DNA of 61,321 nt, counting the filler. It is 5 parts of 5 records of this genome, joined end to end, with 100 filler letters (N's around TTAATTAATTAA, not from the genome) between each part and the next. Parts side by side here need not be neighbours in the genome. Positions count along the whole stretch, not along the records: positions 38,293 to 61,321 come from DRR723986_17768; 4 more parts are not named here. The stretch is one strand, 5' to 3'. Within the stretch, counting starts at the first letter, position 1. The number at the start of each line of letters is the position of its first letter. The notes beneath the pieces are model-generated. The model did not search any database. It worked only from the letters and a program-made list of their open reading frames with translations, and was not told where the DNA came from. A program made the position numbers and the translations under genes. Shown piece by piece: positions 32,265-61,321 of this stretch.

Positions 32265-32273
32265 AAAGCGATT

Positions 32274-38143: not shown

Positions 38144-38151
38144 GTATTTTG

Positions 38152-38176
38152 TACGCGCGCGGTATGATTTGGATCA
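38152..38176 (-). promoter_or_regulatory. RpoE(ECF11)-type autoregulatory promoter
   Basis: Minus strand TGATCC (38176-38171), 15-nt spacer, CGTA (38155-38152), fitting the known sigmaE/ChrR-group consensus. Confidence 0.8.
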
Positions 38177-38192
38177 TTTGCGTATTTTATTA

Positions 38193-38292
38193 NNNNNNNN
38201 NNNNNNNNNNNNNNNNNNNNNNNNNNNNNNNNNNNNTTAATTAATTAANNNNNNNNNNNNNNNNNNNNNNNNNNNNNNNNNNNNNNNNNNNN
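38193..38292. other. Artificial contig spacer
   Basis: N-run/TTAATTAATTAA/N-run. Confidence 0.98.
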
Positions 38293-40595: not shown

Positions 40596-42269
40596 TTAAT
40601 CCACTTCATTCACTGAGAACCAGGCTGCTGCCAGTCTGTCATTGCAACTGGTGTTGGCGCAGGGGCTGATTCCCTCGAGCGCTTGAACCAGTGGGCCGCT
40701 GTGCGGCGGGTCCGCAGGAATCAAGCCGAATCCGTAGTGGTCCTGAAAGTTCAGGTGCCCGTAGTCTCTTGGCTGTTCTGTCACCACCACCAGGAACTGG
40801 TTTTCTCCGGCAGGGCCTGCGGCTTGAATGGGTTCATTGGCCGGAGGCAATCGCATAGGCTTGTTGGCTTGAATGGCCAAGGCTGGAACGCGAACATTTG
40901 GCAACAACTGAATCAGCGAGTTGTCACTGGCACGAACATACACCGCCACAAAACCCGAAACAGGGGACTCAATCTGAAAGCGCAATAGATCTTGACCAAT
41001 TTTCAGTGTTGTTTGCTCCATTTGAATCGTGAGTGAAGTGTCAGCCTTGTCAATCACGGCTTGAAACGATGGGTCCAAATTGTTGGTCAGCGCCGGGCTG
41101 ATTTGTATGGTGTCTGATGAAAGTACCGTTGCTGGAACAACAGCAGTCTTTTCGGTTTCAGCATTTTCCGCCAAGGGCGGAGCATTTAGATCAAAAATGA
41201 ATACTGCAAGCAGCGCGGTAAAGGCAACCGCAGCTGCAATCACGCTGCCTCCACGCTTCATCGACTTCGTTGAATGAAGTCGTTTGGGTGGTGCTTCCGG
41301 TTGGGGGTGGGCTACCTGATCATACAGGCTCAGAATGTCTTGTGTTTCGGTTTGCAAAGCCTGCCGAAACAGCGACATGCTGGCGGTGCGGTCTTGTGGC
41401 TGCACTGCCAGTGCATCGTCAATGGCCTTTTTTACATGCGGGCTGTAGGGCAATTCCGGTCGTTCATGCAAGGGCAGGTAGCTGTCATTCACCAGTCGTC
41501 CGACTGAAGAAGGCGGTGTTTTTCCGGTCATCAAGAAGTGAGCAACTGCTGCCAGTGCGTACACATCTGTCCAGGCACCTTGGGTCATGGAAGGCACTTC
41601 GGCATACTGCTCAATCGGTGCGTAACTCGCTTTGAGAATCACGGTGAATGGTTGCGACACACTGCCAATGGCTCGGCGCGCTGCACCAAAGTCCAGCAAG
41701 ATGGGCAGGTCAGTGTTGTCTTGAATAATGATGTTCTCTGGCGAAATATCCCGGTGATAGCATTGCTGCGAATGCATTACCTCCAGTGCCTCGGTCAATA
41801 CAAGCAGCCAATTCACCAGTTGTTCCTGCGCCAGCGGGGCAGCGTGGTTCTCGGCATACTGTTTCAGGTTCATGCCTTGGTACAGTGGCATCACCATGTA
41901 AGCCGTTCCGGCCATTTCCCAAAACCGGTACACCTTCACCAGCGCAGCATGGTCAAATTGTGCCAGCAGGCGAGCTTCATTGATAAAACTTCGCATGCCA
42001 GCATCAAAGGTGCTTTTATGGCGTGCCTCACGCACTTTCACAGCGCCACCCGGAATGCGTTGGGCCAATGAAGCCGGCAAATACTCTTTCAAGGCCACTT
42101 GTCGTTCAAGCATTGGATCAAGTGCTTTGTACACAATCCCGAATCCACCCACGCCAATCACATCCTGAATCTCAAATCCTTCAATCCGTGTGCCAACAGG
42201 CAGCGGTTGCTGGCCTGAATCATTGGGTATCACAGGCGCAGCCTGAATAACGGTGTTCTCGTTCATCAT
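40596..42269 (-). CDS. ppkA: T6SS-associated membrane Ser/Thr kinase (PpkA-like) with C-terminal DUF4384-like domain
   Basis: IGVGGFGIVY, VALKEY, HRDISPEN, DFG and YAPIEQ; one TM helix; ATGA overlap with tagF sets the start at 42269. Confidence 0.85.
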   Translation of the reverse strand: MMNENTVIQAAPVIPNDSGQQPLPVGTRIEGFEIQDVIGVGGFGIVYKALDPMLERQVALKEYLPASLAQRIPGGAVKVREARHKSTFDAGMRSFINEARLLAQFDHAALVKVYRFWEMAGTAYMVMPLYQGMNLKQYAENHAAPLAQEQLVNWLLVLTEALEVMHSQQCYHRDISPENIIIQDNTDLPILLDFGAARRAIGSVSQPFTVILKASYAPIEQYAEVPSMTQGAWTDVYALAAVAHFLMTGKTPPSSVGRLVNDSYLPLHERPELPYSPHVKKAIDDALAVQPQDRTASMSLFRQALQTETQDILSLYDQVAHPQPEAPPKRLHSTKSMKRGGSVIAAAVAFTALLAVFIFDLNAPPLAENAETEKTAVVPATVLSSDTIQISPALTNNLDPSFQAVIDKADTSLTIQMEQTTLKIGQDLLRFQIESPVSGFVAVYVRASDNSLIQLLPNVRVPALAIQANKPMRLPPANEPIQAAGPAGENQFLVVVTEQPRDYGHLNFQDHYGFGLIPADPPHSGPLVQALEGISPCANTSCNDRLAAAWFSVNEVD

Positions 42270-42874
42270 GGTGCGGTGCCAAGTCCAAGCAAGGTATTGA
42301 AATCGTGGCTTGCAGGCAAGCCGTCGCATTGAAGTACTGCCTTGATTGCACCGCCGTAGTCAATTTCGAACCAATGGCTTTGTGCGTCTCCGACCTGCAT
42401 GGAATCTTTGCTTGCCGACTCATCCATACATAGCGCAAGAGATGCTGACTTCAATTCAAACTTGTTCAGGCACCAGTCCTCGTTCAAGGCGTCCGCGCAC
42501 AAAGTGTGGGCTTGTTGAAACCACAGTGCGAGTGATTCAAAAACAAGTTTATCCAGGCTGCATGAAGGCAGTTCTTGAAGTAAAACAAATGGAAATGCCC
42601 GCCCGGCTTTGTCGACCGAGGGCATCAAGACGCCGATCGCCGCATTGTTGTGAAACTCGGGTGTCACTCGTGGGCCCCACACAAATCCGTGTACAGGCAT
42701 TTGGAAATACGCGTTTGCCCACGCGTCTCCGTGTACCGCCTGGCCCTCTTGAATGGTGCTGCTCAGCCAAAGGTCAAGTGTTTCAAGTAGTCCGGCAGGC
42801 ATGTTGTGGCTGCAAAAATCGCCCACACAGGGCAGTTTGCCAAACCAGCAAAGTTTTTCAGCATGGGTGTTCAT
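42266..42874 (-). CDS. tagF: T6SS-associated protein TagF
   Basis: WFGKLPCVGDF and LMPSVDKAGRAFPF signatures. Confidence 0.92.
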   Translation of the reverse strand: MNTHAEKLCWFGKLPCVGDFCSHNMPAGLLETLDLWLSSTIQEGQAVHGDAWANAYFQMPVHGFVWGPRVTPEFHNNAAIGVLMPSVDKAGRAFPFVLLQELPSCSLDKLVFESLALWFQQAHTLCADALNEDWCLNKFELKSASLALCMDESASKDSMQVGDAQSHWFEIDYGGAIKAVLQCDGLPASHDFNTLLGLGTAP

Positions 42875-45800
42875 AAATTGCCTGGGCAGCGGAATTGTTT
42901 TAGCTCGGTGAGCCGCAGCGGGTTGAAGGCAGAATTGGCCAGTACTTCAAACTCAAATTGTTTTCCATCCAGATTGAAAGTCGCCCTGAATTTCTCTGGT
43001 CGCTCTGTGTTCTGAATTTGAGCTGCATCGAAAAGACGGAACAGCGCCCAAGGTCCGTTGTATGTTTTGTAGTTTCCCTCTGAGGCCCGAACACGCAATG
43101 TGGTTGAAGGCGATTGCCCGCCCCATTGAATTCGGTGCGTGGGCTGAAACTGTTTCGAGAACATTTTCAAGTCGCCATTTGTTTCAAGGTAAAAGACATC
43201 GCCAGGGTTGCTGGCGTTGATCAAACGCATTTCTACATCGAAGCTTGCAGTCGGTTTGCTGCCTGGAAAAAACACATCGCGAATACGCGCTGCGCGCTGA
43301 AACTGCACCAGAGAAGGATTGGCCTGTGGTGCAGAACCGTCACTCAAGGGTTTCAGCGTCCAGTTCGCGCCACCTGTGTCGACCACGCTCGCCAAGCGGC
43401 TTGCAAAGAACTGATCCATCAGGCCTCCGGGCCCAAAGAACCGGGCGAAGTCGTCTGTCAACACGTCCAGACCTGAGCCGGGGTGAATTGGATAACGGTT
43501 TGTCACGGTGCGTCTGCACACCTCTTGCAGTGGGCGCAGGTCTGCTGTCAAATTCGCCCGTTCTGCGGCACGTCCTTGAGCGCTGCCTTGCCCCGCCAAT
43601 TGACCAACAATCGCACGCACGGGCTCAGGCAGCACGCCAGCACCCACCAGCAGCGAGTCCAACGCAGAAGCAGGTGGGGGTGGAACCTTGCTTTTCTTTG
43701 CGCTGGAAACAGCTGCCAATTGTGCATACAAATCGTTCAACAAGGTTGCCACCTGGGCGTAGGCAGGCGGGTTGCCCTCAAACAGATTGTTGATGTCGCT
43801 GAAGTGGTCGTCCACTTGCTGTTCGAGCGGAACCTCGAAGTCGACAGGTTTGAAGTCTGACCCAGCCAGTAGAGCCACATTGGGTGACAGTGCCTGATTG
43901 GCTTTTTGGTTGGCAAGTGCTTCGGCTTTTTCGCCGGCCTTGCTCATGCCAGAAGCCAGTCGAGTATGTGTTGAAACTCCCTCGAGAAACTTTTTCAGGG
44001 GTGATTGCGGCGAGGCCAGTACGCGGGCCAAATCGACGGCCTGGTCAAATTGTGCAGGTTTTAGAATTTGTACATCTTTCAGGTAGGTGTCCCAGGTGCG
44101 AATATAGTCCCGAACATAAAGCTGACGGGCCTGTTGAAGCAGTGCTTTGGAATTCAGCTCACTGGCCCGGTTGTCTGTGGAAGTGTCCCCCATCACCCAG
44201 CTTGATTCCTGACGCAGGCGGTCCGCTTCAACGGGCAATTTCGCCAGAAAATAGCTGACATAGCCTTGGCGCGTATACAGGGCGTCCACCCCCTGGTTCA
44301 GTGATTGCCCACTGGGTCGATTGAAAATTCCAGCGGCACTGATACCAACAGTTTTGATCAAATTGAAATCTGCACCCGGTTGCGGCTTGAAGAACCGCTG
44401 CATGCGTTTGTACAAGCGTTCATCCAGCGCCTGGGCACCGATGATTTGGCGAGCGGTATCGATCAGCTCTTGATCTTTGGGTGGAAGGCTATTGGGTGCT
44501 CCCAGGTGAATTGCTGCCTCCAGGTGTAAACCAGCCGAATCCCGCAGTTCGGGCTCATAAGCCACAAAAACATTTTGCTGCCAGTCATACACCACCCAAG
44601 TCGACAAGGCTTCTGCATCATAGTGCTTGGGTGTGTGAATCATCACATAGGCTTTCAGAGATTCATATGCCAGTTCCATGTCCTGATTCAAGGCATTCCG
44701 CAACCGGTCTTCAAGGCGCTTGGCCACCCGGGGTATTAGCGCATTCGCCAGGGAATTCCGATAGGCAATTTGTTCGGCCTGTTGAAGCTTTTCATCCTGA
44801 TTCAGGCCCAAGGTGTGGTTCACTGCGTCGGGGTTTGCCTGGGCTACCGCGCGCAAATCATTCAGCGCCTTGAACAATTCCTGCAGCGGTGCCTGTGCTT
44901 CTGTTGGCAAGTTGGCGGTTTGCGCAGCCAGTGCAGTGCTCCGTTCTAGTGTCTGTGCTATGGCTTCACTGTTGTTGCCGTGGCTAATCCACCACCCCAA
45001 AGACAACAATGAAAACCCAATCACTGCCACTGCGATCGTGCTGAAATAAACCAACTGCTCGAGAAGGGCTTTCTTTTTCACATAGGCAGCCAGGTGCTGT
45101 TCTGCAAACACCACTTGCGACAACACATCACGAATGAAAAAACTTTTGCCGGGACCTTTGGCCGTTGTGCCTTCAGCTGGATTGTTGGCCATCGCTGATG
45201 CAATTCGATCGAACACATTGCCGTCTTGTGTGCCGCTGGTTAAATAAACACCGCGCAGTGTCACCTGTTTTTCAAAAGGACTGTCCGACTGAAAGGCCAC
45301 TCTCAACAGGTCTTCGATGGCGGGCTTCAATTGGGCCACAGCCAAGGGAAACTCAAACAGCTTTGTACATTTGTAGGCTTGTTCTTCCCGTTCCAGTCGA
45401 GCGTTTAACTGAGCGCTCAGTTTCTCCACCATCTGGCCCAGAGCCTGTGGCAAATCCTTGCTTAGCGTGATGCTCAAATTGTTGGGGTGCTCGAAGTTCA
45501 CGCCCCATGCCTTTGCGCGTTCCGTTTCACTCAGGCGACCAAAGGTTTCCTTGAAACCACAGAGCAAATCCAGCTTGGTTACAAGCACGTAAACCGGCGG
45601 GCACATGCCCAGGGTGCGAATCATCTCCTGCAAACGCAAGGCAATTTTTGCAGCGGTTTCCTTTCGCTTTGCTTCAACGTCCAGTAACTCTTGAATACTC
45701 AAGGTCAGAAGCACACCATTGACTGGCTGCTTCGGTCTGTGTTTTTTCAGCAGACCCAAAAAAGAATTCCAGCCCGCAGCATCGGTGTTCTGATCGGAAT

Positions 45801-46344
45801 CTTGCGTGGTGAAACGGCCTGCTGTGTCTATCAACACCGCTTTGTCTGTAAACCACCAGTCGCAGTTTCGCGTGCCGCCCACACCCTTGACGGATTCCTT
45901 GCCCAAGGGGTCTTGTAATGGAAAACGAAGCCCGGCGTTTTTCAGTGCCGTGGTTTTTCCACTGCCGGGTGGGCCCACAATCACATACCATGGCAACTCG
46001 TACAAGCCGGGTTTGCTAAGGTACCAAGCCTTGCGGGATTGATGCTGCCTCAGCGTTTCCACGGCCTGTTTGAATATGTCATGCAGTTTGGCGGCTTGCA
46101 TCTGAGATTGCTCATCCTGACGAGTCAGCCCTGCTTTCAATGCATGTTCAGCTTTGTGAACTCTCCACCATCGCCAGGCCAGGGGGCCAAATACCAGTGC
46201 GAAAATCAGCAGGCTTAGTGTGCTTCGAATCCAGATGCCGGCAAAAGGCTGCGAATCGCCAATAGAAACAATTGGACCCACAAGCCAAATCAAGGCCAGA
46301 AAACCAATGAATGCCAATAGGCTGAGTACAAATTTCAAAAGCAT
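42871..46344 (-). CDS. tssM: T6SS membrane subunit TssM (IcmF)
   Basis: LYELPWYVIVGPPGSGKTT Walker A, GTRNCDWWF, IDTAGRF, RGVYLTSGTQ, GPWALFRLFD. Confidence 0.95.
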   Translation of the reverse strand: MLLKFVLSLLAFIGFLALIWLVGPIVSIGDSQPFAGIWIRSTLSLLIFALVFGPLAWRWWRVHKAEHALKAGLTRQDEQSQMQAAKLHDIFKQAVETLRQHQSRKAWYLSKPGLYELPWYVIVGPPGSGKTTALKNAGLRFPLQDPLGKESVKGVGGTRNCDWWFTDKAVLIDTAGRFTTQDSDQNTDAAGWNSFLGLLKKHRPKQPVNGVLLTLSIQELLDVEAKRKETAAKIALRLQEMIRTLGMCPPVYVLVTKLDLLCGFKETFGRLSETERAKAWGVNFEHPNNLSITLSKDLPQALGQMVEKLSAQLNARLEREEQAYKCTKLFEFPLAVAQLKPAIEDLLRVAFQSDSPFEKQVTLRGVYLTSGTQDGNVFDRIASAMANNPAEGTTAKGPGKSFFIRDVLSQVVFAEQHLAAYVKKKALLEQLVYFSTIAVAVIGFSLLSLGWWISHGNNSEAIAQTLERSTALAAQTANLPTEAQAPLQELFKALNDLRAVAQANPDAVNHTLGLNQDEKLQQAEQIAYRNSLANALIPRVAKRLEDRLRNALNQDMELAYESLKAYVMIHTPKHYDAEALSTWVVYDWQQNVFVAYEPELRDSAGLHLEAAIHLGAPNSLPPKDQELIDTARQIIGAQALDERLYKRMQRFFKPQPGADFNLIKTVGISAAGIFNRPSGQSLNQGVDALYTRQGYVSYFLAKLPVEADRLRQESSWVMGDTSTDNRASELNSKALLQQARQLYVRDYIRTWDTYLKDVQILKPAQFDQAVDLARVLASPQSPLKKFLEGVSTHTRLASGMSKAGEKAEALANQKANQALSPNVALLAGSDFKPVDFEVPLEQQVDDHFSDINNLFEGNPPAYAQVATLLNDLYAQLAAVSSAKKSKVPPPPASALDSLLVGAGVLPEPVRAIVGQLAGQGSAQGRAAERANLTADLRPLQEVCRRTVTNRYPIHPGSGLDVLTDDFARFFGPGGLMDQFFASRLASVVDTGGANWTLKPLSDGSAPQANPSLVQFQRAARIRDVFFPGSKPTASFDVEMRLINASNPGDVFYLETNGDLKMFSKQFQPTHRIQWGGQSPSTTLRVRASEGNYKTYNGPWALFRLFDAAQIQNTERPEKFRATFNLDGKQFEFEVLANSAFNPLRLTELKQFRCPGNL

Positions 46345-46387
46345 GTTGAATACCTGGTGATGTGGAGTTCGAGATTCAGCGCAGCCT

Positions 46388-47752
46388 TCATTGGTTGTGA
46401 ATCAGCATGATCTCGACACGACGATTTCTTGCTCGGCCTTGCGCGCTGTCATTGGGTGCGATCGGGTTGGCAGCCCCCGCGCCTTCAGTGGCAATTGCAG
46501 TGTTGGGAAGAAATGTGGCGATGCGTTGGCCCACATGTTCCGCGCGTTCCGCGGACAGCTGCCAGTTCGATGGAAAGCGAATGGATCGAATAGGTTGGTT
46601 GTCGGTGTAGCCTGTCACCGTGATCTGCCCCGGGTGTAGCGCAAGTTCTCTGGCCACTTTCTCCACCAGCGGAATTGCGCTGTCATTCAATTCAGCACTG
46701 CCGGAGTTGAACAAACCGTCGCCAGTCAGAATCAGGGTTGATTTGTTGCCGATTTGTTTCAGGGTGAGCAATCCTGCAACAATTTCTTCTCGCAGTTGAA
46801 TGGGCAATTCAAGCCCCTGTGTTACTGGAACGGGCATACTCTGAGCCTGCGCGAATTGGGGTGAGGGAAATTGAATGGATACAATTTCCGCAAACGCATG
46901 ATCCGATTGGGTATTCAAGTTGAAATACAATCCGAGGAAAAACAAGGCACCCAAAGTGCTCAGGGCACTGATTGGTAACCACAATGGAATTTGGCGCATT
47001 CGCCTGTTGTTGCCGGGTGCCTTCGATTGCCAGAAGTCGGGGTGAAGACTGGTTGGCGTGTCGGTTGAATTGGGTTGAACCAATTGAAACAGACGGGTTT
47101 TCAATTGACTTAAAGCAAGGTCGCCACCCTGTTCAATCTTGTATTTGCCTTTGAATCCAAAGCTGAGAATCACAGCCATCACTTCCAGCAAATCCCGATT
47201 CTCGGAAGGGTTTTGCATCAACTTCTGAATCAGCGCGAAAATCTTTTCCCCGCCCCAGGTTTCACTGAAAAACTGCAACAGCAAACTGTGATTGGCCCAT
47301 TGGCCCGAGCCACCCCATGGGGTACTGGCGGCACGTTCATCCATGAAGGTACACAGCGCATAACGAATGGACAAACGCTCAGCCTGTACACGCCCAATTT
47401 GTTCCAGTTTCTGATCAAGTTCAGTCAATCCTTTTGACAGGGTGGCCGACAAAGCCTTGTGCGATGGAATATCGCTGAGCGCTCCCATGGTACAGATCAA
47501 GCGCAGCAACGGGCTGGCATGGGCCAGCAGTTTGTTCTGGCTTGCTGTCGGGTTTGCCTGAAGTTGATGCAGCATTTGATCAAAACTGGTTTGCGCTTGC
47601 GTGTCGGGCATCCCCATGCCGGAACCTGAGGTGGTCGATGGCCCCAAAATATTGTCGAGCGACTGAATGGCTGGCGATGCAGGTTTACCCAACCGCGGCT
47701 TGATGATGGTGCGTTCACCACCCAGTGCGAAAAACGGATCATTGGGATTCAT
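46388..47752 (-). CDS. tssL: T6SS TssL (DotU), long form with C-terminal OmpA/MotB peptidoglycan-binding domain
   Basis: RYALCTFMDE, ETWGGEKIF, LSFGFKGKY; TM helix; GYTDN...NWQLSAERA...NRRVEI. Confidence 0.94.
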   Translation of the reverse strand: MNPNDPFFALGGERTIIKPRLGKPASPAIQSLDNILGPSTTSGSGMGMPDTQAQTSFDQMLHQLQANPTASQNKLLAHASPLLRLICTMGALSDIPSHKALSATLSKGLTELDQKLEQIGRVQAERLSIRYALCTFMDERAASTPWGGSGQWANHSLLLQFFSETWGGEKIFALIQKLMQNPSENRDLLEVMAVILSFGFKGKYKIEQGGDLALSQLKTRLFQLVQPNSTDTPTSLHPDFWQSKAPGNNRRMRQIPLWLPISALSTLGALFFLGLYFNLNTQSDHAFAEIVSIQFPSPQFAQAQSMPVPVTQGLELPIQLREEIVAGLLTLKQIGNKSTLILTGDGLFNSGSAELNDSAIPLVEKVARELALHPGQITVTGYTDNQPIRSIRFPSNWQLSAERAEHVGQRIATFLPNTAIATEGAGAANPIAPNDSAQGRARNRRVEIMLIHNQ

Positions 47753-49113
47753 AGCAAACGCTCCTGTTCACGGCGAACAGCCCACAACTCCAGGCGTAGT
47801 TCAGGCAAGTCGCCGGCGTAATGAATCGCAATGTGCCCTGTTTGATCCAGCATTTTCCACAAAGGATCTGTGCGCGTTTCCAGCTGAAAATACAAATGGT
47901 CTGCGTAATAGGGCAAAGCGGCGTGCGCCTGCTGAACATGCTTTAGTCGAACACCCGGAAGGTTCAGATTGACGAGGTCGCGCAATTTCTCAACCGGACC
48001 AATTTTGACAGTGCTTGGAAATTGTCTTTGTACCAACTCCTCGGGTGCCGCAGCATGCACAGTCAGGTAAAAGTGAGCGTTGACCAGCAGGGTTCTGTCG
48101 GTAATTTGACCCAGATGAACACCCGCCTGTTTTTGTATCAAAGGAATTTGTACGGCGTGCTGGTCGTGAAGGCCTGCAAGTGCATTGCGAAGGGCTGTAA
48201 AAACTGCGTCAAAAGCCAAACGCAAATTGTCATGATCGTAGTTGGGCAAGAAGTCGGCTGCGGTGTCGTCACCATACAATGTGACAGCACCCAAACAAGC
48301 CAGAAGTCGCAGGTAGGCAGCCTCAGGATGTACCTGTTTGCTGCGAAGCAGGTGTGCAACAATCAACCGGTGTTGTACGCAAGCTTGCAATAACAAGAAG
48401 TCCCCTATTTCCGAACTGTTGTGGCTTCCCTTGCGCACACGTCGTTGCCGAAGCTGGTTGATTTTACTTTCCAGCAACGCCAGTACAGCTTCCAGTATTC
48501 GGCGAATGTTGGCGTTTTGAAGGCTGCACAAGCAAGGTTCAATGAAAGCATCAACAAGCTGGATTTCTGAACTTCTTGATTCACGAAATTCACAGATCGC
48601 CAGTTGAACATGCCCTTCCTGATGAAGGTGTTCTGCACTTAAAAAAAGATTCAAGCGCGCCAGGTCAACCGCAGAGGGTTCAAGCTCAGGGTCGTAAACA
48701 CTGGAAATTTCAGTGGTTTCGGCCAGGTACTTTAGCGGCGAACGGTTGTTTGTTGGTGCCTCTTCCAGTGTCCAGCCCAAATGCCTCCCCGCCCAGTGGG
48801 GTTTGGCCAGCGAAAGGTAGACCTTTCCGCTTTTCACAGCATTGGCGAAATCAAGACAGGGAGGTGCCGGGTCCTTGTCAGGAATCGAGAAGTGTGTTCC
48901 GTCCGGAAAATACCCTGATGCCTTGAGAATACCCACCTTGCCGGCCAGCAACAGATCAGGGTCCAGCTGTAGCTGATGAAAGCCGTGGTAATGCCCATGA
49001 AAGTGCGCTGTTCGAATATGAATTTCATGGTCGAAATAGCGTTCTTGCTGCTGAAAATGTTGGGGTTGGAGAAAGAGACCTTCACTCCAGATTACACGGC
49101 TGTTTTTAGTCAT
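47749..49113 (-). CDS. tssK: T6SS baseplate subunit TssK
   Basis: VIWSEGLFLQPQHFQQQERY, FPDGT, YDHDNL, LVNLNLPGV, LELWAVR. Confidence 0.94.
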   Translation of the reverse strand: MTKNSRVIWSEGLFLQPQHFQQQERYFDHEIHIRTAHFHGHYHGFHQLQLDPDLLLAGKVGILKASGYFPDGTHFSIPDKDPAPPCLDFANAVKSGKVYLSLAKPHWAGRHLGWTLEEAPTNNRSPLKYLAETTEISSVYDPELEPSAVDLARLNLFLSAEHLHQEGHVQLAICEFRESRSSEIQLVDAFIEPCLCSLQNANIRRILEAVLALLESKINQLRQRRVRKGSHNSSEIGDFLLLQACVQHRLIVAHLLRSKQVHPEAAYLRLLACLGAVTLYGDDTAADFLPNYDHDNLRLAFDAVFTALRNALAGLHDQHAVQIPLIQKQAGVHLGQITDRTLLVNAHFYLTVHAAAPEELVQRQFPSTVKIGPVEKLRDLVNLNLPGVRLKHVQQAHAALPYYADHLYFQLETRTDPLWKMLDQTGHIAIHYAGDLPELRLELWAVRREQERLL

Positions 49114-49272
49114 TTAGGGGGATGAGTTTCACTCTCTGTTGGCTGTGATGTATCACTCGTTGGGCGAATTTTTTCAAAAGGAATAGACTCGTGGCCCAAG
49201 TCGCGAAAAATCCTATCACGAGATTTTTTAAGGTGATTTTTTTACCGATGCCCTACCTATTCCGGAGTAGCT

Positions 49273-49812
49273 ATGTTTGAAAAACATATTCTGAAGTTCG
49301 CTTTGTTGGCGCCCGTGCTCATCGGCTTGCACGCACCGTCCCATGCAGAATCGTTGGTGGTTGATTTGGCCGACACAGTTCCAGCTGTCGAGCAGGTTAA
49401 AGAGGGTTTGTTCCCCGAAGAGGCATGTGAAGAGCTTCGTAAAAACGGTTTCAAATGCATGGGGTTCAAGCCCGCAGTGCGTTTTTCAATTCCGAATGCG
49501 CATTTCCAGTTGGGATCTGCCGAGCTTCCCGCTGAACTGAAAAAGCAGTTGGATGTTTTCGCACAGGTGCTGAGTAATCGTCCATCCGATTCCCCGCCAA
49601 TTGTGGTTACGGGTCATGCCGATGCCAGCGGTGACGCTTCCTTGAACCAGGTGCTTTCTTCAGAGCGCGCCAAAGCTGTTAAAACTTACCTGACTCAGAA
49701 GGGTGTATCGCCAAGCTTGTTGCGTGTGGAGGGCAAGGGTGCTGACAAGCTGGCTGACGTGAACAATCCTTTTGCTCCCGCCAATCGCCGAGTTGAAATC
49801 AGCCGCCAATGA
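49273..49812 (+). CDS. Exported OmpA_C-like peptidoglycan-binding protein
   Basis: Signal peptide; FQLGSAEL, GHADASG..LNQVLSSERA, NRRVEI; Cys pair in CEELRKNGFKC. Confidence 0.85.
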   Translation: MFEKHILKFALLAPVLIGLHAPSHAESLVVDLADTVPAVEQVKEGLFPEEACEELRKNGFKCMGFKPAVRFSIPNAHFQLGSAELPAELKKQLDVFAQVLSNRPSDSPPIVVTGHADASGDASLNQVLSSERAKAVKTYLTQKGVSPSLLRVEGKGADKLADVNNPFAPANRRVEISRQ

Positions 49813-53697: not shown

Positions 53698-54490
53698 AAC
53701 CTTGTTGTTGCGCGCCAGTGTACAGGGTCAGAATGCTTTGCTGACTCTGAACGGCATGGTGCTTGGCAAGTTACAAAATGGGCGAGAACTGGTGTTGCCC
53801 ATCCATGAGTATGTTCAGTCGGGCGAAAACAGAATTCAGGTGATTCTGTTACCGGGTGCTTCAATGCGAGGCGCATCCTTGAATCCTGATCATGCCCTGC
53901 TCACGCAAAACTGCAGCACAACTGTGTGGGTTGAACTTCAAAAAGACCGTGGGCCTGATGTGCTGGTGCAGCCACGGGTGTTATTTGAATTGAAAACTGC
54001 TTTTCAACCTGGGCAGCGTTTGAGAAAAAACCGTTTGCTGGATTCGACAGTTGACTTGCCGGTTTCCTTTCCCCGTTGGCGCTATCTCGATGTATTGCCT
54101 TCCACACACGGTGCAAATGATTCGGCATTGATTGAAGATTTTCTGCTGAATATGTTTGCCCAATTCAAGTCAGGCAAGGCATCTGCCTTGCTGCCGTTTT
54201 TTACCGTTCGCAATCGCGAATTGGCTGCGGCTTATGGCCTCGACCCACAAAATGTAGTCAGCGATTTCGCAGCACATCTGATACATCTTTGCACACAATC
54301 CGAGTTGCTTGAATCCGCGCTGGATCCCCAATGCTGGCAGTTTCAATGCGTTCGCCAATCTCCGGTTCACGCATTGCTGGATATCAATCACGCGCCGCTG
54401 CTGCAATGGAAATGCAAGCTGAGCGGAGCCACCCTTCAACTGCCCATGCATGTGGGTGTGTTGGGTGGTGAAGTTTTTGTATTGCGTTAA
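53690..54490 (+). CDS. Hypothetical protein, 266 aa
   Basis: ATG 53690 overlaps the upstream stop; LNGMVL...LPIHEYVQSGENRI, LPVSFPRWRYLD; no motif recognised. Confidence 0.75.
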   Translation: MDKTLLLRASVQGQNALLTLNGMVLGKLQNGRELVLPIHEYVQSGENRIQVILLPGASMRGASLNPDHALLTQNCSTTVWVELQKDRGPDVLVQPRVLFELKTAFQPGQRLRKNRLLDSTVDLPVSFPRWRYLDVLPSTHGANDSALIEDFLLNMFAQFKSGKASALLPFFTVRNRELAAAYGLDPQNVVSDFAAHLIHLCTQSELLESALDPQCWQFQCVRQSPVHALLDINHAPLLQWKCKLSGATLQLPMHVGVLGGEVFVLR

Positions 54491-54501
54491 GGGTGGGTTG
54501 A

Positions 54502-55515
54502 ATGTATTCCAACTTTGAATTCCAGATTACCCGCGATGGTCAGGCGGACAAGGCAATCGAACAGTGGCCTGTGCCCTTGCAGGGGGGATCGATTGGCCGC
54601 TCGCCCGATTGCACCTGGGTGTTGAAAGATCCCCAACGGGTGGTGTCGCGTTTGCACGCACAGGTACTTGTTGAGAATTCCCAATGCCACTGGACAGACC
54701 TTGGCACCAACAGTACCTTGGTTAACGGCAAACCCATGCCCCAGAATCAATCTGTGCCCTTGAGTCCCGGCGATGTGCTGCGAATTGGTGATTACTCAAT
54801 CATTCTTGCGAAGGTTGCCGCGAATTGGAACGGATTCGAGGACCTGATGCCGAGGCCCGAAATTGATCCACTGGAATCCTGGTTGCCACAACCAGCTTCT
54901 AACGTCGGGATCGACGATCTTTTAGCAGCTTTCGATATGCCTTTGCCGTCTGTCGAAAGCGACATCGAAGAGAACATTTCGCCGTTGGCCCAGCGTATGT
55001 ATGTGGGTTCCCAACAAGCTGATTCAGCGGTTCGAGGTGTGGTGGCTGAACAACCGACAACACCCTCCACAATTCAGGATGTAGAGAAGTTGCGCCACTT
55101 GTTGGGTATCTGCGTTCAAGGTTGCATGCAATTGCTTTCAGCGCGCCGAATTTTCCAGGAAGAAACGGGCAGCAAGCTGACCAGTATTTCCGCGAATGGC
55201 AATAATCCACTGAAGTTTTCTGCATCACCGGCGCAAGCCATGGGCAAACTGCTTGGTGATAATTCACTGGCTTATCTGGATGCAGAGCAGGCCTTTGAGC
55301 AGGCGTTTCAGGATATTCAGGCGCACATGCAACTGAGTGTTGCGCGAATTCAAGTATTGATTGAGCAGGTTCAGGGTGGTCTGGATCCAGCTGTGATCGA
55401 ACAAGAAATTAATCGGCAAGGTGGATTGAGTTTGAGTCTCGAACTCGCCAGAAAAGCACGCATGTGGGACCTTTATTGCGATCGCTACCGGCATCTGGCG
55501 GGCACATGGAGTTGA
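54502..55515 (+). CDS. tagH: T6SS FHA domain protein (TagH/Fha)
   Basis: FHA motifs IGR...VSRLHA...TNSTLVNG and the C-terminal NNPLKFS TagH motif. Confidence 0.9.
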   Translation: MYSNFEFQITRDGQADKAIEQWPVPLQGGSIGRSPDCTWVLKDPQRVVSRLHAQVLVENSQCHWTDLGTNSTLVNGKPMPQNQSVPLSPGDVLRIGDYSIILAKVAANWNGFEDLMPRPEIDPLESWLPQPASNVGIDDLLAAFDMPLPSVESDIEENISPLAQRMYVGSQQADSAVRGVVAEQPTTPSTIQDVEKLRHLLGICVQGCMQLLSARRIFQEETGSKLTSISANGNNPLKFSASPAQAMGKLLGDNSLAYLDAEQAFEQAFQDIQAHMQLSVARIQVLIEQVQGGLDPAVIEQEINRQGGLSLSLELARKARMWDLYCDRYRHLAGTWS

Positions 55516-56291
55516 CCATTCAACTGGGTGGCGCACACGAAGGGCGATTGTTGCAAGTACGGGTTACACAGCGTACCGACATTGGTAACCGCCCGGAAAA
55601 TCAGGACGCCGTTGGGCATAAATTATTTGGAGACTGGCTGGTGTGCGTATTGGCAGACGGTGCTGGTGGTCATCGCGGCGGGCAGCTTGCTGCTGCCTTG
55701 GCTGTTGAAATGTCTTTGAGTGCATTTGAACAATCACCCACGCTGGAAAGATCACGCTTGCTGGAACTGATGCAACAGGTGAATCAAAATATTATGCATC
55801 AACAGACCACACACCCTGATTGCTCAGACATGCACACCACCGTTTGTCTTCTGGTGATCAATCAACGATCTGCACAGGCAGTTTGGTTGCATGTTGGCGA
55901 TTCGCGTGTGTATCACTTTCAGCAAGCTGTGCTGCGCTCAAAAACCAGGGACCACAGTGTGTTGCAGTGGATGATTGATCATCAACAATCCGATGGTCAA
56001 GCCAGTCGAAACGCGCTGTATACCGCATTGGGTGAGCAAAATGAACATCTTCACATGGATGTGACCGGGCCTTGCTGCTTGTGTGCTGGGGACTGGTTCT
56101 TGATGTGCAGCGATGGTTTGTGGGAACACCTCAATGATGACGAGCTCGCATTGCTGGGCACCAACTTGTGGTGTGCAGAGGATTGCAACGCCCACATCCA
56201 TCAACTGGCGTTTAATCGCGCCTTGGGGCGGGCAGACAACCTCAGTAGCATTTTGGTCTTTGTGGATGAGGGGGGTGCTCAATTCGGTTGA
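55506..56291 (+). CDS. pppA: PP2C-family Ser/Thr phosphatase (PppA-like)
   Basis: RPENQD, LADGAGGH, HVGDSRVY, CSDGLW, DNLS. Confidence 0.88.
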   Translation: MELTIQLGGAHEGRLLQVRVTQRTDIGNRPENQDAVGHKLFGDWLVCVLADGAGGHRGGQLAAALAVEMSLSAFEQSPTLERSRLLELMQQVNQNIMHQQTTHPDCSDMHTTVCLLVINQRSAQAVWLHVGDSRVYHFQQAVLRSKTRDHSVLQWMIDHQQSDGQASRNALYTALGEQNEHLHMDVTGPCCLCAGDWFLMCSDGLWEHLNDDELALLGTNLWCAEDCNAHIHQLAFNRALGRADNLSSILVFVDEGGAQFG

Positions 56292-56371
56292 CACCATACC
56301 AATGACCCAATTTCCTGATTTCCGGTTTTGATGTTTCACTCCGGTTCGCTCTCATTCCAAGTACCTATTCC

Positions 56372-58072
56372 ATGTTGACCAACCGATACACAATTGCCCT
56401 GTTGCTGTACACACTTGCCTGGCCAGTACAGGCCCAGGTGTCTACGCCCGCCCCCTTTCTCAATCCCGAGTCTGCTGCGTCTGCTGCGGAAAAAGAAGCA
56501 GAGCCTGTCATTGACAATCAGGCTGAAAGAAAGGCGGCCCCTGAGTTGGGCAAGCCGTTGAACGATGTGTCTCTGAATGTCAGCGCTTATCGAATTGAAG
56601 GTGTCGAAGCCAAGCATCTGAACGATATTCAGAAATTGCTGGTGCCGTATGTGGGCGAAAAGCGTTCGTTTGAAGACCTCAGCAGTGCAGCACAGGTGGT
56701 GACCGCATTCTTGCAGCGTGAATTGGGCTATTACCTGGCGTATGCCTATTTGCCCGCGCAAGACATTAAAAACGGTGTGGTGACCATTGCCGTGTTGCCC
56801 GGTGTGCTGGAGTCAGTCGAAGTGGCTTGGCCTGCAGAAGAACTGCGCGTGAATCGGGATATTGTTGAATCGCACTTGAAGCGTTTAAAGCCCGGTACGG
56901 TGATTCGTGTGGAAGAGGTAGAGCGGGTGGTGTTCCTGCTCAATGACTTGCGTGGCATTCGAATGTCATTTGCCATCAAGCCTGGCACACAGGCAGGCAA
57001 AGCGATTCTGGTTGCAACACCCAGCAACGACAAGGCACTGACCGGCAGTGTGGGCCTGGATGCAAACGGCTCGCGGTACGCAGGCACGTACCGTGGCATT
57101 GGCACCTTTTCCTGGGAAAGTCCGTTTGGCTTGGGTGACTCGTTTTCGGTCAGTCATCTTCAATCTGAAACAGGTGGTTTGGACTTCACGCTGCTGGGTT
57201 ACACCCTGCCGGTTGGTGCGGATGGATTGAAGTTGGGTGTCAACGTGTCTACCGTGAATTATTCACTTGAGGAAAACGATTTTCCCTTGGGCTTGAATGG
57301 CGATGCAGAATCGCTAGGTGTATTCGCGCTGTATCCCCTGGTGCGTTCACGCAACCTGAATGTGTTTGCACTGACTGGGTATGACAAAAAGGAGTTCACT
57401 GACAGGCAGAGCCTGTCTGGTTTGGAAACCGTGAAGGAAGTGGATTCATTTCGCCTCGGTCTCAGTGGCGACTCCCGCGATAGCCTGGTGGGCGGCGGTC
57501 TTAACTTCTTCAACTTCAACGTAGAGGAAAGCAAAACGAATTATCCGGGTGGTGTGCCGTTTGGTCTGGACGATGAACTTAACACCATGCGTGTGAACTA
57601 CTCGTTTGGTAGGTTGCAATCTGTTGTGCCCGGCAAGTTGATGCTGTGGAGCTTCTTGCGTGGTCAATATGCACTCGACAATCTTGACAGCAGTGAACAA
57701 TGTTCGCTGGGTGGTGCTACGGCTGTGCGCGCATTTGCACAAGGTGAAACTTCTGGCGACAGCTGCGATTTGTTCACGCTGGAAGCGCGCTATTTGCCCT
57801 CTGTCAACTGGTTTGGCAGTGCGGCGCGTGAATTGTCTTTCAATGTGTTTTTTGATCAAGGCCGTGTTCGTTTTCGCGAAGACACCAGCAATCAGCCCGC
57901 AGGATTCAACAACCATGCCGAACTGGCTGGTTACGGCCTGGGTTTGGCGTGGGACAGGCAAGACATTTTCACATTCAACTTGAGTTTGGCCTGGGAGCTG
58001 GCGGGTGTTCGGCAGTCTGATCCGAAACGCCAAAGCCCAAGAATCTTTGCATCTTATATCTACTATTTCTAA
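56372..58072 (+). CDS. ShlB/FhaC/HecB family two-partner secretion outer-membrane transporter (TpsB)
   Basis: Signal peptide, POTRA-like GYYLAYAYLPAQDI, LGGATAVRAF (VRGY-like motif), C-terminal YIYYF barrel signal. Confidence 0.92.
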   Translation: MLTNRYTIALLLYTLAWPVQAQVSTPAPFLNPESAASAAEKEAEPVIDNQAERKAAPELGKPLNDVSLNVSAYRIEGVEAKHLNDIQKLLVPYVGEKRSFEDLSSAAQVVTAFLQRELGYYLAYAYLPAQDIKNGVVTIAVLPGVLESVEVAWPAEELRVNRDIVESHLKRLKPGTVIRVEEVERVVFLLNDLRGIRMSFAIKPGTQAGKAILVATPSNDKALTGSVGLDANGSRYAGTYRGIGTFSWESPFGLGDSFSVSHLQSETGGLDFTLLGYTLPVGADGLKLGVNVSTVNYSLEENDFPLGLNGDAESLGVFALYPLVRSRNLNVFALTGYDKKEFTDRQSLSGLETVKEVDSFRLGLSGDSRDSLVGGGLNFFNFNVEESKTNYPGGVPFGLDDELNTMRVNYSFGRLQSVVPGKLMLWSFLRGQYALDNLDSSEQCSLGGATAVRAFAQGETSGDSCDLFTLEARYLPSVNWFGSAARELSFNVFFDQGRVRFREDTSNQPAGFNNHAELAGYGLGLAWDRQDIFTFNLSLAWELAGVRQSDPKRQSPRIFASYIYYF

Positions 58073-58082
58073 GAGAATTTTT

Positions 58083-61000
58083 ATGACTTCCGCAACTTAC
58101 AAGCTGAATTCGTCTTTCCCACTCAAGCCACTGGCAGCTGCCGTGTTGCTGGTGTTCAGTGCCAAAGTGCAGACTGCGCCGATTCTTGATGGTGTCTTGG
58201 GCAATAACCTTGATCTGGACGTGTCATTGCCCGGCACCACTGTGATCACTCAGACAGTCAATCAACGTGATGTGATCAGGTGGCAGGAGTTTTCCATCGG
58301 CAGCGGCGAAACAGTTCGATTTGTTCAGCCCGGTGCCGATTCTGTTATTTTGAATCGGGTTGTCGGGGGTAATTCATCTGAAATTTTCGGCAGCCTGGTG
58401 GCCAATGGTCGAATTTTCCTGATCAACCCAAGTGGTATTGTGTTTGGTGCGGGTTCTCAGGTGAATGTGGGTAGTCTTGTAGCGTCTACATTGAATCTCA
58501 AGGGCAATGGTAACGGCAATGGCCAAATGCCCGGTCAAACAATTGAGTTTGAAACAGGTGCAAATGCCGGAGGTATTCTCAATGCTGGCAGCATCACTGC
58601 CAAAGACATCGTATTCCTGGCGCCTTCCATTAAAAACTCGGGAAATCTGACAGCAGGATTGCAACCACAACACCAGGCTGGGTCTGGCGTGTCGGTGAAT
58701 CTTATTGCAGCCAGGGAGGTCACCGTAAATACCTCGGGCAGTGACCTGGTTGTTCAGGCAGTTGAAGGTCACAACAACGCCTTGATTCAACAGCTTGGCC
58801 AGGTGCTGGCCGAGGGCGGACGGATTATTTTGTTGGCCAATGCATCGAACAGCGGCGATCCCAGTGTCATCAACACGGCCGGTGTAAACCAGGCTTCACG
58901 AATCTCAATTGAAGGTGATTTGATTCAATTAACAGGTAGCCTCAACGTGGGTAACCCACAGGGTACTGTAGACGTTATTGCGGGTGAAGTTGGCCAGATG
59001 CACAACGGCCAAAGTGCGGCTTTGCTGTCTGACGGTGGCTTGAATATCAATTCAAGAGGTGGCTTGAGCTTAAACAACGCTGGCAATGACTTCACTGGCT
59101 CGGTCGATTTGACAGCGACAGGGTCAGTTGCAGTTCATGATTCCAACAATTTGCAAGTTTCGGTCGATTCAGGCGGTGAAGCCACACTCAGTGCTCAGAA
59201 CCTTGCCATCAGAAGCCTTGCTTCTGATGGCCTCACAGTCAATGCCAGTGGCAGGATCGAGCAGACTGGCCCGGTGCAGGTGAATGGAAGCACAGTATTG
59301 AATGCAAATGAAATCAACCTGGGGAATCAGGCAAACCAGTTTGATGGCGAGGTATTGATTAACAGCACTGCGGGTACTACTTTACACACCAATGGTGAGT
59401 TGAACATTTCAGGTTCTGCCGCGCAACTGAATTTGACAGCAGCCGAAATTACACAGAGCGCTGCGCTGTCCGTTGCTGGTTTATCCGCCCTGAATGCCAA
59501 TCAGGTCAATCTGCTTGAGTCCGACAATGATTTCGCAGGCAATGTCGAACTTGCGGTGACTGGTGCAGCCACTTTAATTGACATGAATGATCTGGCCGTG
59601 TCGGGGTCTGCCGGTGCAGCCACTTTGTCAGCAGTCAATCAAGTGCAGTTAAACGAACTGACAGTTGAAAGTTTGAATGTTACTGCGGCCAGCATTGCAC
59701 AGAACGGAACACTGACTGTGCAGCAAGGTACAAGCTTGAATGCAAGCGCGGTTCAGTTGGCGGACATATCCAATGATTTCGGCAGCAATGTCGAGCTTGG
59801 CAATGTGGGCACCGCCGAGCTTGCTGATGAGGGCGAGTTGTCTTTGTCAGGGCAGGTCAACAACCTGACCGCAACCGCCCGCAATACCACCCAGTCGGCG
59901 CAGGCAGGGCCGTTGACAGTTAACAACACGGCAACTTTCAATGGCGAGAACGTTGAATTAATTCAGCTTGGCAATACATTTCGCGGCCAGGTCGTTCTCA
60001 ATCTGGATGGTCAGGTTCAATTGGGCAGCGCCGAGGGTATTGCGGTCTCAGGGCGGGCTGCAAGCGCAGTTTTCAACGTAGATTCGATTCGTCAAGGCAC
60101 CACTGAAGCCGATGCGCTGAATGTGCTTGGGCAAACGCACATTAACAACAGCAATTCTGTTCAGCTAAACAACGCGGCAAACCGTTTCGGTTCAACTGTG
60201 GTTCTGCACAATGCAGGCGCAGTAAATTTGAATGGCAACGATACTCTGACTGTTCAGGGTTCTGCCGATGATGTCACTTTGACCACCGGCTCCAATGGGC
60301 AGATTGTTGTAAACGGCTTGAATGCAAACAGCCTGAGTGCAACAGCAACACGAATTGATCAAACTGATTTTTTGAATGTGACAGGCACCAGCGCACTGAG
60401 TGCACAACATATTGATTTGACTGAGTCAGGCAATAATCAATTCGGCTCTTCGGTCACACTCGCTTCCAGTGAAATCGCAGCAATAAAAGCCAACGGTACA
60501 TTGACTGTGGCAGGCAATGTTGCCAGCGGTAGTGTTGAAGCCGATTCCTTGGTGTTCAACGGTTTGACCGCAAGCAATGGCCTGGCAATGAGCGCAGACA
60601 GCATCACGCAAAGCATGGATGTTGATCGTGCCCTGCAGGTGCAAGGTGAAACCCGGATCAACAACTCGGGTGCCGTTGCGTTGAACAATGCAATGAACGA
60701 TTTTAATGGCGATGTGGTTTTGAATACCCAAGGTTCTGTGCGTTTGCGTGACAGCAATACCTTGACGATTGAGGGGCAGGCCGGTTCGCTTGACCTGACA
60801 GCGCTATCCATCGCACAAAGTGACTCACTGGTTGTGGAAACCAGCACTGCCTTGAATGCCGCCGCAGTCAGCCTGAATAACCCTGCGAATGATTTTCAGG
60901 GGCAGGTTAACTTGCTTGGCAATGCACGTGTCAGTTTGCGCGACGAAAACACACTGAACGTGGCAGGCAATGCACAGGAACTTGAGTTGAATGCAAACAC

Positions 61001-61321
61001 TGTTGAAATCGATAATGCGCTGACAGTGAATGAAAGCTTGACCTTGACTTCAGATGTTGTGACACAGGCTTCCTCGGGTGCGGCGGCCTTGATGGTTGGG
61101 GGTGATGCGCGCATTGAGCACCGCGACAACAGCAGCAATACCTTGGTACGGTTGAACAACGCCAACAACGATTTTGTTGGCCTGGTTACTTTAAACAATC
61201 AAGTCAATGTTGAACTGGCTGACCGAAATATGCTGACTGTCCAAGGTGATGTGGGTACCTTGAATGTGAGGGCTTCGCAGCTGGTACAGGTCGGTTCACT
61301 GACTGTTCGAAACAATGCGAC
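58083..61321 (+). CDS. Filamentous-haemagglutinin-like TpsA exoprotein, 3'-truncated (over 1070 aa visible)
   Basis: Not in the ORF track (no stop before the window ends). Read by hand: signal peptide, then WQEFSIGSGETVRFVQP...ILNRVVGG...NGRIFLINPSGIVFG TPS domain; same frame confirmed near 59040 and 61140. Confidence 0.93.
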   Translation, partial: MTSATYKLNSSFPLKPLAAAVLLVFSAKVQTAPILDGVLGNNLDLDVSLPGTTVITQTVNQRDVIRWQEFSIGSGETVRFVQPGADSVILNRVVGGNSSEIFGSLVANGRIFLINPSGIVFGAGSQVNVGSLVASTLNLKGNGNGNGQMPGQTIEFETGANAGGILNAGSITAKDIVFLAPSIKNSGNLTAGLQPQHQAGSGVSVNLIAAREVTVNTSGSDLVVQAVEGHNNALIQQLGQVLAEGGRIILLANASNSGDPSVINTAGVNQASRISIEGDLIQLTGSLNVGNPQGTVDVIAGEVGQMHNGQSAALLSDGGLNINSRGGLSLNNAGNDFTGSVDLTATGSVAVHDSNNLQVSVDSGGEATLSAQNLAIRSLASDGLTVNASGRIEQTGPVQVNGSTVLNANEINLGNQANQFDGEVLINSTAGTTLHTNGELNISGSAAQLNLTAAEITQSAALSVAGLSALNANQVNLLESDNDFAGNVELAVTGAATLIDMNDLAVSGSAGAATLSAVNQVQLNELTVESLNVTAASIAQNGTLTVQQGTSLNASAVQLADISNDFGSNVELGNVGTAELADEGELSLSGQVNNLTATARNTTQSAQAGPLTVNNTATFNGENVELIQLGNTFRGQVVLNLDGQVQLGSAEGIAVSGRAASAVFNVDSIRQGTTEADALNVLGQTHINNSNSVQLNNAANRFGSTVVLHNAGAVNLNGNDTLTVQGSADDVTLTTGSNGQIVVNGLNANSLSATATRIDQTDFLNVTGTSALSAQHIDLTESGNNQFGSSVTLASSEIAAIKANGTLTVAGNVASGSVEADSLVFNGLTASNGLAMSADSITQSMDVDRALQVQGETRINNSGAVALNNAMNDFNGDVVLNTQGSVRLRDSNTLTIEGQAGSLDLTALSIAQSDSLVVETSTALNAAAVSLNNPANDFQGQVNLLGNARVSLRDENTLNVAGNAQELELNANTVEIDNALTVNESLTLTSDVVTQASSGAAALMVGGDARIEHRDNSSNTLVRLNNANNDFVGLVTLNNQVNVELADRNMLTVQGDVGTLNVRASQLVQVGSLTVRNNA
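59070..61250 (+). repeat. About 10 degenerate protein-level repeats in TpsA (L.N..NDF.G.V.L......L.D...L.V.G)
   Basis: LNNAGNDFTGSV, LGNQANQFDGEV, LLESDNDFAGNV, LADISNDFGSNV, LIQLGNTFRGQV, LNNAANRFGSTV, LTESGNNQFGSSV, LNNAMNDFNGDV, LNNPANDFQGQV, LNNANNDFVGLV, spaced about 60-95 aa apart. Confidence 0.8.

Follow-up and report, generated by a model that had tools for sequence, protein, structure and literature searches.

A Limnobacter type VI secretion locus without sheath or tube genes is very likely one of two loci that encode a single contractile machine

The window analysed here is a stretch of 61,321 nucleotides (nt) made of five pieces joined end to end; its last piece (~23 kb, 38293-61321; record DRR723986_17768) carries a type VI secretion system (T6SS) locus that encodes the membrane complex, a connector to the baseplate, a spike and several regulators, and that leads into a two-partner secretion (TPS) gene pair. 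We conclude that this piece is very likely one of two chromosomal loci that jointly encode a single canonical contractile T6SS (T6SSi) of Limnobacter (Burkholderiales). Positions 38971-59113 are 95.5% identical in DNA to a contig of Limnobacter sp. MED105, and the homology begins at 38295; in a TssK-based scan of species-representative genomes, the TssK of the piece shares 98% protein identity with those of MED105 and L. olei, and the same scan returned about a dozen more Limnobacter-type loci with 57-85% identity.

According to the listing of open reading frames (ORFs), Pfam and NCBIfam, the minus strand is transcribed in the order tssK-tssL-tssM-tagF-ppkA, and a divergent operon on the plus strand runs from an ompA-like gene to tpsA. 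A preliminary description of this DNA had named the genes of both operons; all of them were found where it had placed them, with matches well above the curated cut-offs. The genes and the region between the two operons are as follows (aa, amino acids):

40596..42329, minus strand: PpkA (TagE), Hanks-type Ser/Thr kinase (Pkinase 1.1e-27, with a C-terminal DUF4384)
42266..42874, minus strand: TagF, post-translational T6SS repressor (PF09867 4e-33; TIGR03373 97.5 bits)
42871..46344, minus strand: TssM (IcmF), membrane complex (three IcmF domains)
46388..47752, minus strand: TssL, long form with a C-terminal OmpA-type peptidoglycan-binding domain (DotU 1.5e-50 plus OmpA; TIGR03350 149 bits)
47749..49113, minus strand: TssK, connector between baseplate and membrane complex (PF05936 3.1e-113)
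49114..49272, no strand: intergenic DNA from which tssK and the ompA-like gene diverge; promoters are presumed here, none was called
49273..49812, plus strand: OmpA-like periplasmic peptidoglycan-binding protein, 179 aa (signal peptide without a lipobox Cys)
49809..51866, plus strand: VgrG (TssI) spike (TIGR03361 522 bits; PF05954 1.4e-76)
51863/51881..52339, plus strand: 152/158-aa protein without a family match of its own
52336..53697, plus strand: 453-aa protein, fast-evolving (helical N-terminus, beta-rich C-terminal domain)
53576/53690..54490, plus strand: 266-aa accessory protein (beta-sandwich and NTF2-like domain)
54502..55515, plus strand: TagH/Fha (FHA domain and T6SS_FHA_C; TIGR03354 189 bits)
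55464..56291, plus strand: PppA (TagG), PP2C phosphatase (Pfam)
56372..58072, plus strand: TpsB outer-membrane transporter (POTRA_2 and ShlB)
58005..61319, plus strand: TpsA, first 1105 aa, open at the window end (N-terminal TPS domain and DUF5649 repeats)

All 14 ORFs are intact and the widest intergenic gap in the locus is 159 nt, which bears out the earlier claim that no gap hides another core gene. The canonical T6SSi parts in the window are TssL and TssM, TssK, and VgrG; they are accompanied by a threonine phosphorylation set in one cluster, that is, a Hanks kinase, a PP2C phosphatase, an FHA protein with T6SS_FHA_C and a TagF_N protein. PpkA has a single membrane span (about residues 359-380) and its DUF4384 domain is periplasmic. 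No ORF of the locus resembles TagQRST by Pfam (the genomes were not searched for TagQRST), no toxin extension was recognised on VgrG with Pfam or NCBIfam, and scans of 49000-58200 for promoters and terminators gave counts no higher than the shuffle level. The gene for the OmpA-like protein adjoins tssK in outgroup genera as well.

The genes for the sheath, tube and baseplate are missing from the locus, as the preliminary description had stated. Using tblastn, we compared the window proteins and the second-locus proteins of MED105 with 80 related loci; no homologue of tssA/B/C/hcp/E/F/G/clpV lies within 10 kb of tssK in any of the 12 full-size Limnobacter loci. These genes are present elsewhere in related genomes. 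When five Limnobacter genomes, reached through TssK-matched loci, were searched with T6SS profiles, each of the five contained exactly one TssC (E ~1e-133, above the Pfam cut-off) and exactly one TssK, the latter always in the locus homologous to the window; all five also contain three or four Hcp and, at other loci, PAAR (PF05488 above cut-off). The idea that sheath genes are missing genome-wide is therefore contradicted by TssC and Hcp in all five relatives. In MED105 the TssC gene is located on a separate contig in the operon tssA-tssB-tssC-hcp-hcp-tssE-tssF-tssG-clpV (tssA, ImpA_N; tssB, VipA 3.4e-57; tssE, TIGR03357 59.2 bits with a cut-off of 53.2; tssF, 2e-178; tssG, 2e-79); L. alexandrii has the tssA-clpV operon in the same order and between the same neighbouring genes. 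Thus, the canonical T6SSi parts found in the relatives are TssB/TssC, Hcp, TssE/F/G, TssA, ClpV and PAAR, and the first of two options offered by the preliminary description, a T6SS split across loci, is the one that these genomes uphold. Persson et al. (2009; PMC2702493) list one T6SS and three TPS systems for Limnobacter sp. MED105 (sheath families PF05591 and PF05943 are among their markers); the T6SS passages available from PMC4557100 concern other genera, not Limnobacter.

The two halves are inherited together in most of the genus. Among 26 species-level Limnobacter genomes, TssC and TssK were each found in 22; they occur together in 21 genomes, three genomes lack the two, and the remaining two have one without the other. 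In the five genomes in which TssC and TssK share a contig, they are separated by 327 kb, 430 kb, 1.41 Mb, 2.87 Mb and 3.13 Mb; the two largest spacings would come to ~0.4 Mb if counted in the opposite direction on a circular chromosome.

In four of five outgroup genomes (Aquincola, Roseateles, Niveibacterium, Rubrivivax), the nearest TssC is 11.5-31 kb from the orthologous TssK on one contig; in the fifth it is on a separate contig. In several loci from Acidobacteriota and Rubrivivax, tssA-tssB-tssC-hcp is the immediate neighbour of tssK, and the Rubrivivax locus L032 is fully contiguous, with tssK bordering on ompA-tssA-tssB-tssC-hcp-tssE-F-G-clpV. Judged by these gene orders, the simplest history would be a once contiguous cluster in which the tssA-clpV block stood between the ompA-like gene and vgrG, and from which this block was moved away in the lineage of Limnobacter. 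The genes that remain in the locus are under purifying selection and show no sign of decay: the ratio of nonsynonymous to synonymous substitution rates (dN/dS; Nei-Gojobori, window against orthologues) is 0.09-0.15 for tssK, tssL, tssM and vgrG against the two closest genomes (L001/L002), and against L003 it is 0.07 for tssK, 0.07 for tssL, 0.05 for tssM, 0.04 for vgrG and 0.06 for tpsB, at synonymous divergences (dS) of 1.1-1.8 that are near saturation. The preliminary description had connected purifying selection on tssK/L/M/vgrG with a new system; the selection is there (0.04-0.15), yet so are the sheath genes in the relatives. In a separate comparison of MED105 with L. alexandrii, TssB, TssC and Hcp are 98-99% identical and TssK, TssL and TssM 67-73% identical, that is, the two T6SS halves evolve at different rates in this pair.

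The TpsB-TpsA pair has the hallmarks of two-partner secretion (the type Vb secretion system, T5bSS): the genes are adjacent, TpsB combines POTRA with a ShlB barrel, and TpsA starts with an N-terminal TPS domain. The TpsA orthologue of MED105 has 2406 aa, a TPS domain and 22 DUF5649 repeats. In a search for a toxin end of the contact-dependent growth inhibition (CDI) type, its last 399 aa matched nothing at E<=0.1 but a weak DUF5649 repeat; as regards a CdiBAI system, this TpsA carries no recognised toxin, and the next gene is HbpS-like and not a recognised immunity gene. Beyond tpsA, MED105 has HbpS-like, NlpC/P60, M48 and LysR genes, none of them T6SS, so of the earlier thought that missing T6SS genes might follow tpsA or lie elsewhere, only the second part stood: the sheath half is at another place. 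To judge from these sequences, the likeliest product of the TpsB-TpsA pair is a large, repetitive adhesin at the cell surface; it does not look like a CDI toxin. The pair directly follows pppA in 12/12 full-size Limnobacter loci, at TssK identities down to 57%, and the same pppA-tpsBA adjacency occurs at locus L015, whose TssK is only 38% identical. As further observations, a tpsB-tpsA pair is located between tssK and ompA-tssA in two Rubrivivax metagenome-assembled genomes (MAGs; L036:7276-9611 and L040:7297-9575), and a tpsB is found near tagH in a gammaproteobacterial MAG (L060:33-1304).

The second option of the preliminary description was a non-contractile derivative, devoid of sheath and tube, that would act together with the TPS protein, be it in adhesion, in contact sensing or in export without injection. 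The gene content of the locus itself, which lacks sheath, tube and baseplate genes, the constant position of tpsBA behind pppA in the Limnobacter loci and the purifying selection on the genes are all as this option would have them; however, related genomes contain a complete sheath/tube/baseplate/ClpV operon, the very finding that the preliminary description had set against its own proposal, the halves are co-present or co-absent in 24/26 Limnobacter genomes, and in outgroups the same genes stand in one cluster with tssBC. Because a single TssC is matched to a single TssK in 5/5 genomes and the two co-occur, a sheath-less machine fails in the closest relatives, and we consider it extremely unlikely here; the coherence of the retained set, which had been taken as a sign of repurposing, is the usual operon structure of this T6SS type. 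We regard it as very unlikely that the source organism has lost the sheath locus and that the present locus is a decaying or idle remnant: the sheath locus is known from relatives only and one of the 26 genus genomes (G023) has TssK without TssC, but all 14 ORFs are intact, the dN/dS values of 0.09-0.15 for tssK, tssL, tssM and vgrG were obtained against 95%-identical relatives, and the TssK of G023 is on contig 249 of a 2.5-Mb assembly, so the absence is weak evidence. Several observations do weigh against a single T6SSi encoded at two loci. The sheath, tube and baseplate locus is seen in relatives only, and what can be said of expression and secretion would follow from homology; two genomes are discordant (G023 with TssK only, G017 with TssC only), both with their single match on a contig numbered above 200; and TssJ, a small and divergent protein, was above cut-off in none of the five Limnobacter genomes with either PF12790 (0/5) or TIGR03352 (0/5). 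In addition, the G+C content is ~0.52 for the locus piece and ~0.58-0.63 and 0.47-0.49 for the others, only the last of the five pieces matches Limnobacter genomes, and 8300-28200 and 28400-38290 are without a close match in the five genomes of this genus; therefore, the 23-kb piece may have been binned wrongly with unrelated contigs, that is, the bin may be mixed.

Compatible with a split T6SS, and thus a different kind of alternative, is the proposal that TpsB-TpsA is a functional T6SS accessory: as an adhesin on the cell surface, expressed together with Fha-PppA, it would keep target cells in contact or signal contact to PpkA. We consider this unlikely, and slightly less likely again its more specific form, in which TpsBA is an integral, co-transcribed accessory whose giant DUF5649-repeat filament tethers neighbours or reports contact to the DUF4384 kinase PpkA; if true, a type Vb system would serve for targeting or contact in a type VI machine for which no TssJ was detected. 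The gene for TpsB starts 80 nt past pppA and no terminator-like site was called in that gap, the adjacency persists across the 12 Limnobacter loci and L015, TPS genes occur elsewhere inside the T6SS clusters of L036, L040 and L060, and the dN/dS of tpsB (0.06) is low like that of the core genes. On the other hand, the adjacency may be the inherited linkage of one genus, a TPS gene was found nearby with tblastn at only 3 of the ~66 loci outside the named Limnobacter records, and MED105 has, in any event, a total of three TPS systems (PMC2702493, Table 1). We compared 41322-61321 with two metatranscriptome runs (X1, X2) and with two more of ambiguous type; contigs are present in every one of the 30 bins, their depth is flat, and a contig of 9.2 kb spans the divergent promoter, so DNA carry-over is likely, and the contigs are hence uninformative on transcription and on the pppA-tpsB junction. 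TPS systems are absent from the T6SS accessory factors in the available text of a 2026 review, in which 'two-partner' occurs 0 times (PMC13584744), and a TPS pair in a T6SS cluster is not described in any of the titles or abstract openings returned by full-text literature searches.

The non-detection of TssJ is not remarkable because functional T6SSs without TssJ are documented: the functional T6SS of Agrobacterium has no TssJ homologue (PMC3702570), and 27.5% of 1096 non-Acinetobacter genomes with tssM and tssB are reported without TssJ, TsmK or the GS-linker (PMC10564176). A 214-aa lipoprotein (lipobox LLMAC; L092:7073-7717) encoded behind the clpV-caspase genes was considered as a candidate and not called TssJ; its sequences in MED105 and L. 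alexandrii share 97% identity, which is also the level of the housekeeping genes at the flanks.

If the two loci encode one T6SSi, as we conclude, the window locus would supply the envelope complex (TssM and the peptidoglycan-binding long-form TssL), the TssK connector and an OmpA-like protein as helper in the periplasm, a single VgrG spike together with its DUF4123-like adaptor and the proteins associated with them, and a threonine phosphorylation switch consisting of PpkA, its target Fha/TagH, PppA and TagF. The second locus would supply TssA, the TssB/TssC sheath, two Hcp, the TssE/F/G wedge and the recycling ATPase ClpV, with further Hcp and PAAR genes coming from auxiliary islands. In the predicted cycle, PpkA would phosphorylate Fha/TagH and thereby license assembly on the membrane complex, here TssLM without a detected TssJ; TssK would dock the TssEFG-VgrG baseplate, while peptidoglycan-anchored TssL and TssM would form the envelope channel; Hcp/TssBC polymerisation would be primed by TssA; VgrG and cargo would be fired by contraction; and ClpV would recycle the sheath, PppA would reverse the phosphorylation and TagF would repress, leaving the system off. 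This firing mechanism and the roles of the regulators are inferred from characterised homologues, and the review that describes them also covers the roles of TagE/TagH/TagF/TagQRST (PMC13584744).

Of the three unnamed genes behind vgrG, the first two may provide the adaptor. The preliminary description had called the first of them a DUF4123 gene; the window protein itself does not match DUF4123 even at E<=5, so the call did not hold for it directly, but 4/11 of its aligned homologues match PF13503 (DUF4123; best 1.7e-34), and on this basis the 152/158-aa protein has probably diverged from the N-lobe of a DUF4123 (Tap/Tec) adaptor. A PDB profile search with the alignment of the 158-aa protein gave a chance match only (E 0.54). 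The 453-aa protein encoded next has no match in Pfam, Atlas, PDB sequences or Foldseek. In its AlphaFold2 (AF2) model (predicted local distance difference test, pLDDT, 86), the N-terminal helices (residues 3-100) match residues 199-302 of 9r8g chain B in VIA (Z 8.5, root-mean-square deviation 2.2 Å, 95 residues), which is the only match with Z>=8 among 48,161 chains. This chain is the DUF4123 adaptor Tap3, a bilobed protein of 307 aa with modelled residues 13-302 (PMC12909789); the likeness to the helical C-lobe of Tap3 is only suggestive. No fold match was obtained for the beta-rich C-terminal part in PDB sequence, VIA or Foldseek searches. The ORF for the 453-aa protein evolves fastest (dN/dS 0.20; 29-37% identity where TssK has 71-80%), and it overlaps the 152/158-aa ORF by 4-7 nt in the window and in the relatives checked. 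Two overlapping genes may thus share one DUF4123 adaptor between them (the 158-aa protein as N-lobe, the start of the 453-aa protein as C-lobe), or the adaptor may be extended, and the 453-aa protein may, from its model, be an adaptor extension or cargo.

The third protein, of 266 aa, has a predicted fold (pLDDT 90) that consists of a beta-sandwich plus an NTF2-like domain; it has no Pfam match, no Foldseek match at E<=1e-3 and only unnamed clusters in Atlas, and its VIA matches are generic only (NTF2-like, Z 7.7; CBM-like, Z 6.0). Homologous ORFs were recovered at 33/80 related loci, including those of Aquincola and Roseateles, a spread that suggests a conserved accessory function and speaks against an immunity gene peculiar to one strain.

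Around the second locus, a caspase-like (Peptidase_C14) gene of 472 aa overlaps the end of clpV in MED105 (L092:5573-6991) and is 79% identical to its counterpart in L. alexandrii (L093); it is a possible unrecognised T6SS accessory gene. A 348-aa ORF (L092:7687-8733) was judged by its composition to be a spurious antisense frame. Elsewhere in MED105, a third Hcp gene and a PAAR gene are ~13 kb apart (G001:C39:62557-75864), and this region probably serves the same T6SS as an auxiliary island for effectors.

The system has partial parallels in several known ones. The P. aeruginosa (Pseudomonas aeruginosa) H1-T6SS is like our locus in its regulators PpkA, PppA, Fha and TagF, and its gene order is reportedly tagF-tssM-tssL-tssK with a separate tssA-tssB-tssC-hcp-...-tssE-F-G-clpV operon, adjacent and divergent. 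Its operons are adjacent, whereas the Limnobacter halves are 0.33-3.1 Mb apart; Limnobacter also differs in that TssJ was not detected, PpkA has the periplasmic DUF4384 and a TPS pair stands behind pppA. The T6SS of Agrobacterium tumefaciens, which is said to be a single locus, belongs to a different lineage, and TPS genes are not reported for it. It shares with Limnobacter the Fha/TagF-type post-translational control, and it has no TssJ homologue (PMC3702570, PMC13584744). In Blastopirellula marina DSM3645, as in Limnobacter, core T6SS genes are found at two genome locations (PMC2702493); however, the lineage and the split points differ, the Limnobacter cut lying between the ompA-like gene and tssA, with vgrG-tagH-pppA staying with tssKLM. 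The T6SS of Acinetobacter is TssJ-less, with a non-canonical membrane complex (PMC10564176), for which Acinetobacter compensates via TsmK and a TssM GS-linker, whereas Limnobacter has the OmpA-like periplasmic protein and long-form TssL. In the Tap3-Tke5 system of Pseudomonas putida the DUF4123 (Tap/Tec) adaptor has the same position directly behind vgrG; in Limnobacter the adaptor is seemingly encoded in two parts, and neither a MIX-type effector nor an immunity gene was recognised in the locus. Finally, FhaB/FhaC-type TPS adhesins resemble the Limnobacter pair in the POTRA_2 and ShlB domains of TpsB, the N-terminal TPS domain of TpsA and the adjacency of the genes, and differ from it in the TpsA passenger, which in the MED105 orthologue is formed by the 22 DUF5649 repeats.

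The surroundings of the locus in the window are short. Four spacers (N44-TTAATTAATTAA-N44) join the five pieces, at 5943-6042, 17542-17641, 28121-28220 and 38193-38292, and the features between the last of them and ppkA are:

38193..38292, no strand: contig-join spacer (N44 + TTAATTAATTAA + N44); the DNA to its left belongs to other pieces
38316..38969, plus strand: radical-SAM (lipA-like) gene, 5'-truncated (Pfam Radical_SAM, residues 3-149 corresponding to profile positions 22-165)
38970..39440, minus strand: DM13-domain protein (flank)
39518..40525, minus strand: AdeT-type solute-binding protein (flank), which adjoins ppkA across Limnobacter

The unrelated genes said to close the left edge are therefore present, but this flank is only 2.3 kb long and ends inside the 5'-truncated lipA; the right edge is open, inside the tpsA repeats, and the contigs break at 61245/61246 in all four sequencing runs compared with the locus. 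An AcrB-family gene at 28402-31254 begins at profile position 92 directly after a spacer; it lacks its start because it is cut by a contig end, as is the lipA-like gene at 38316.

When a single 23-kb contig from a stitched bin carries a T6SS locus without sheath or tube genes, this does not speak for a reduced machine. Limnobacter has the other half in a second operon at another site in the genome, and the halves are inherited and lost together; the split T6SS is an ordinary T6SSi regulated by the threonine phosphorylation pathway, and that of MED105 had already been counted by Persson et al. (2009; PMC2702493). The locus offers modest leads, that is, a TPS adhesin operon tied to fha-pppA across the genus, an adaptor seemingly in two genes, and a membrane complex without a detected TssJ but with an additional OmpA-like periplasmic protein. 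What the two loci document for the genus is a clean, lineage-specific split of a threonine-phosphorylation-regulated T6SS.

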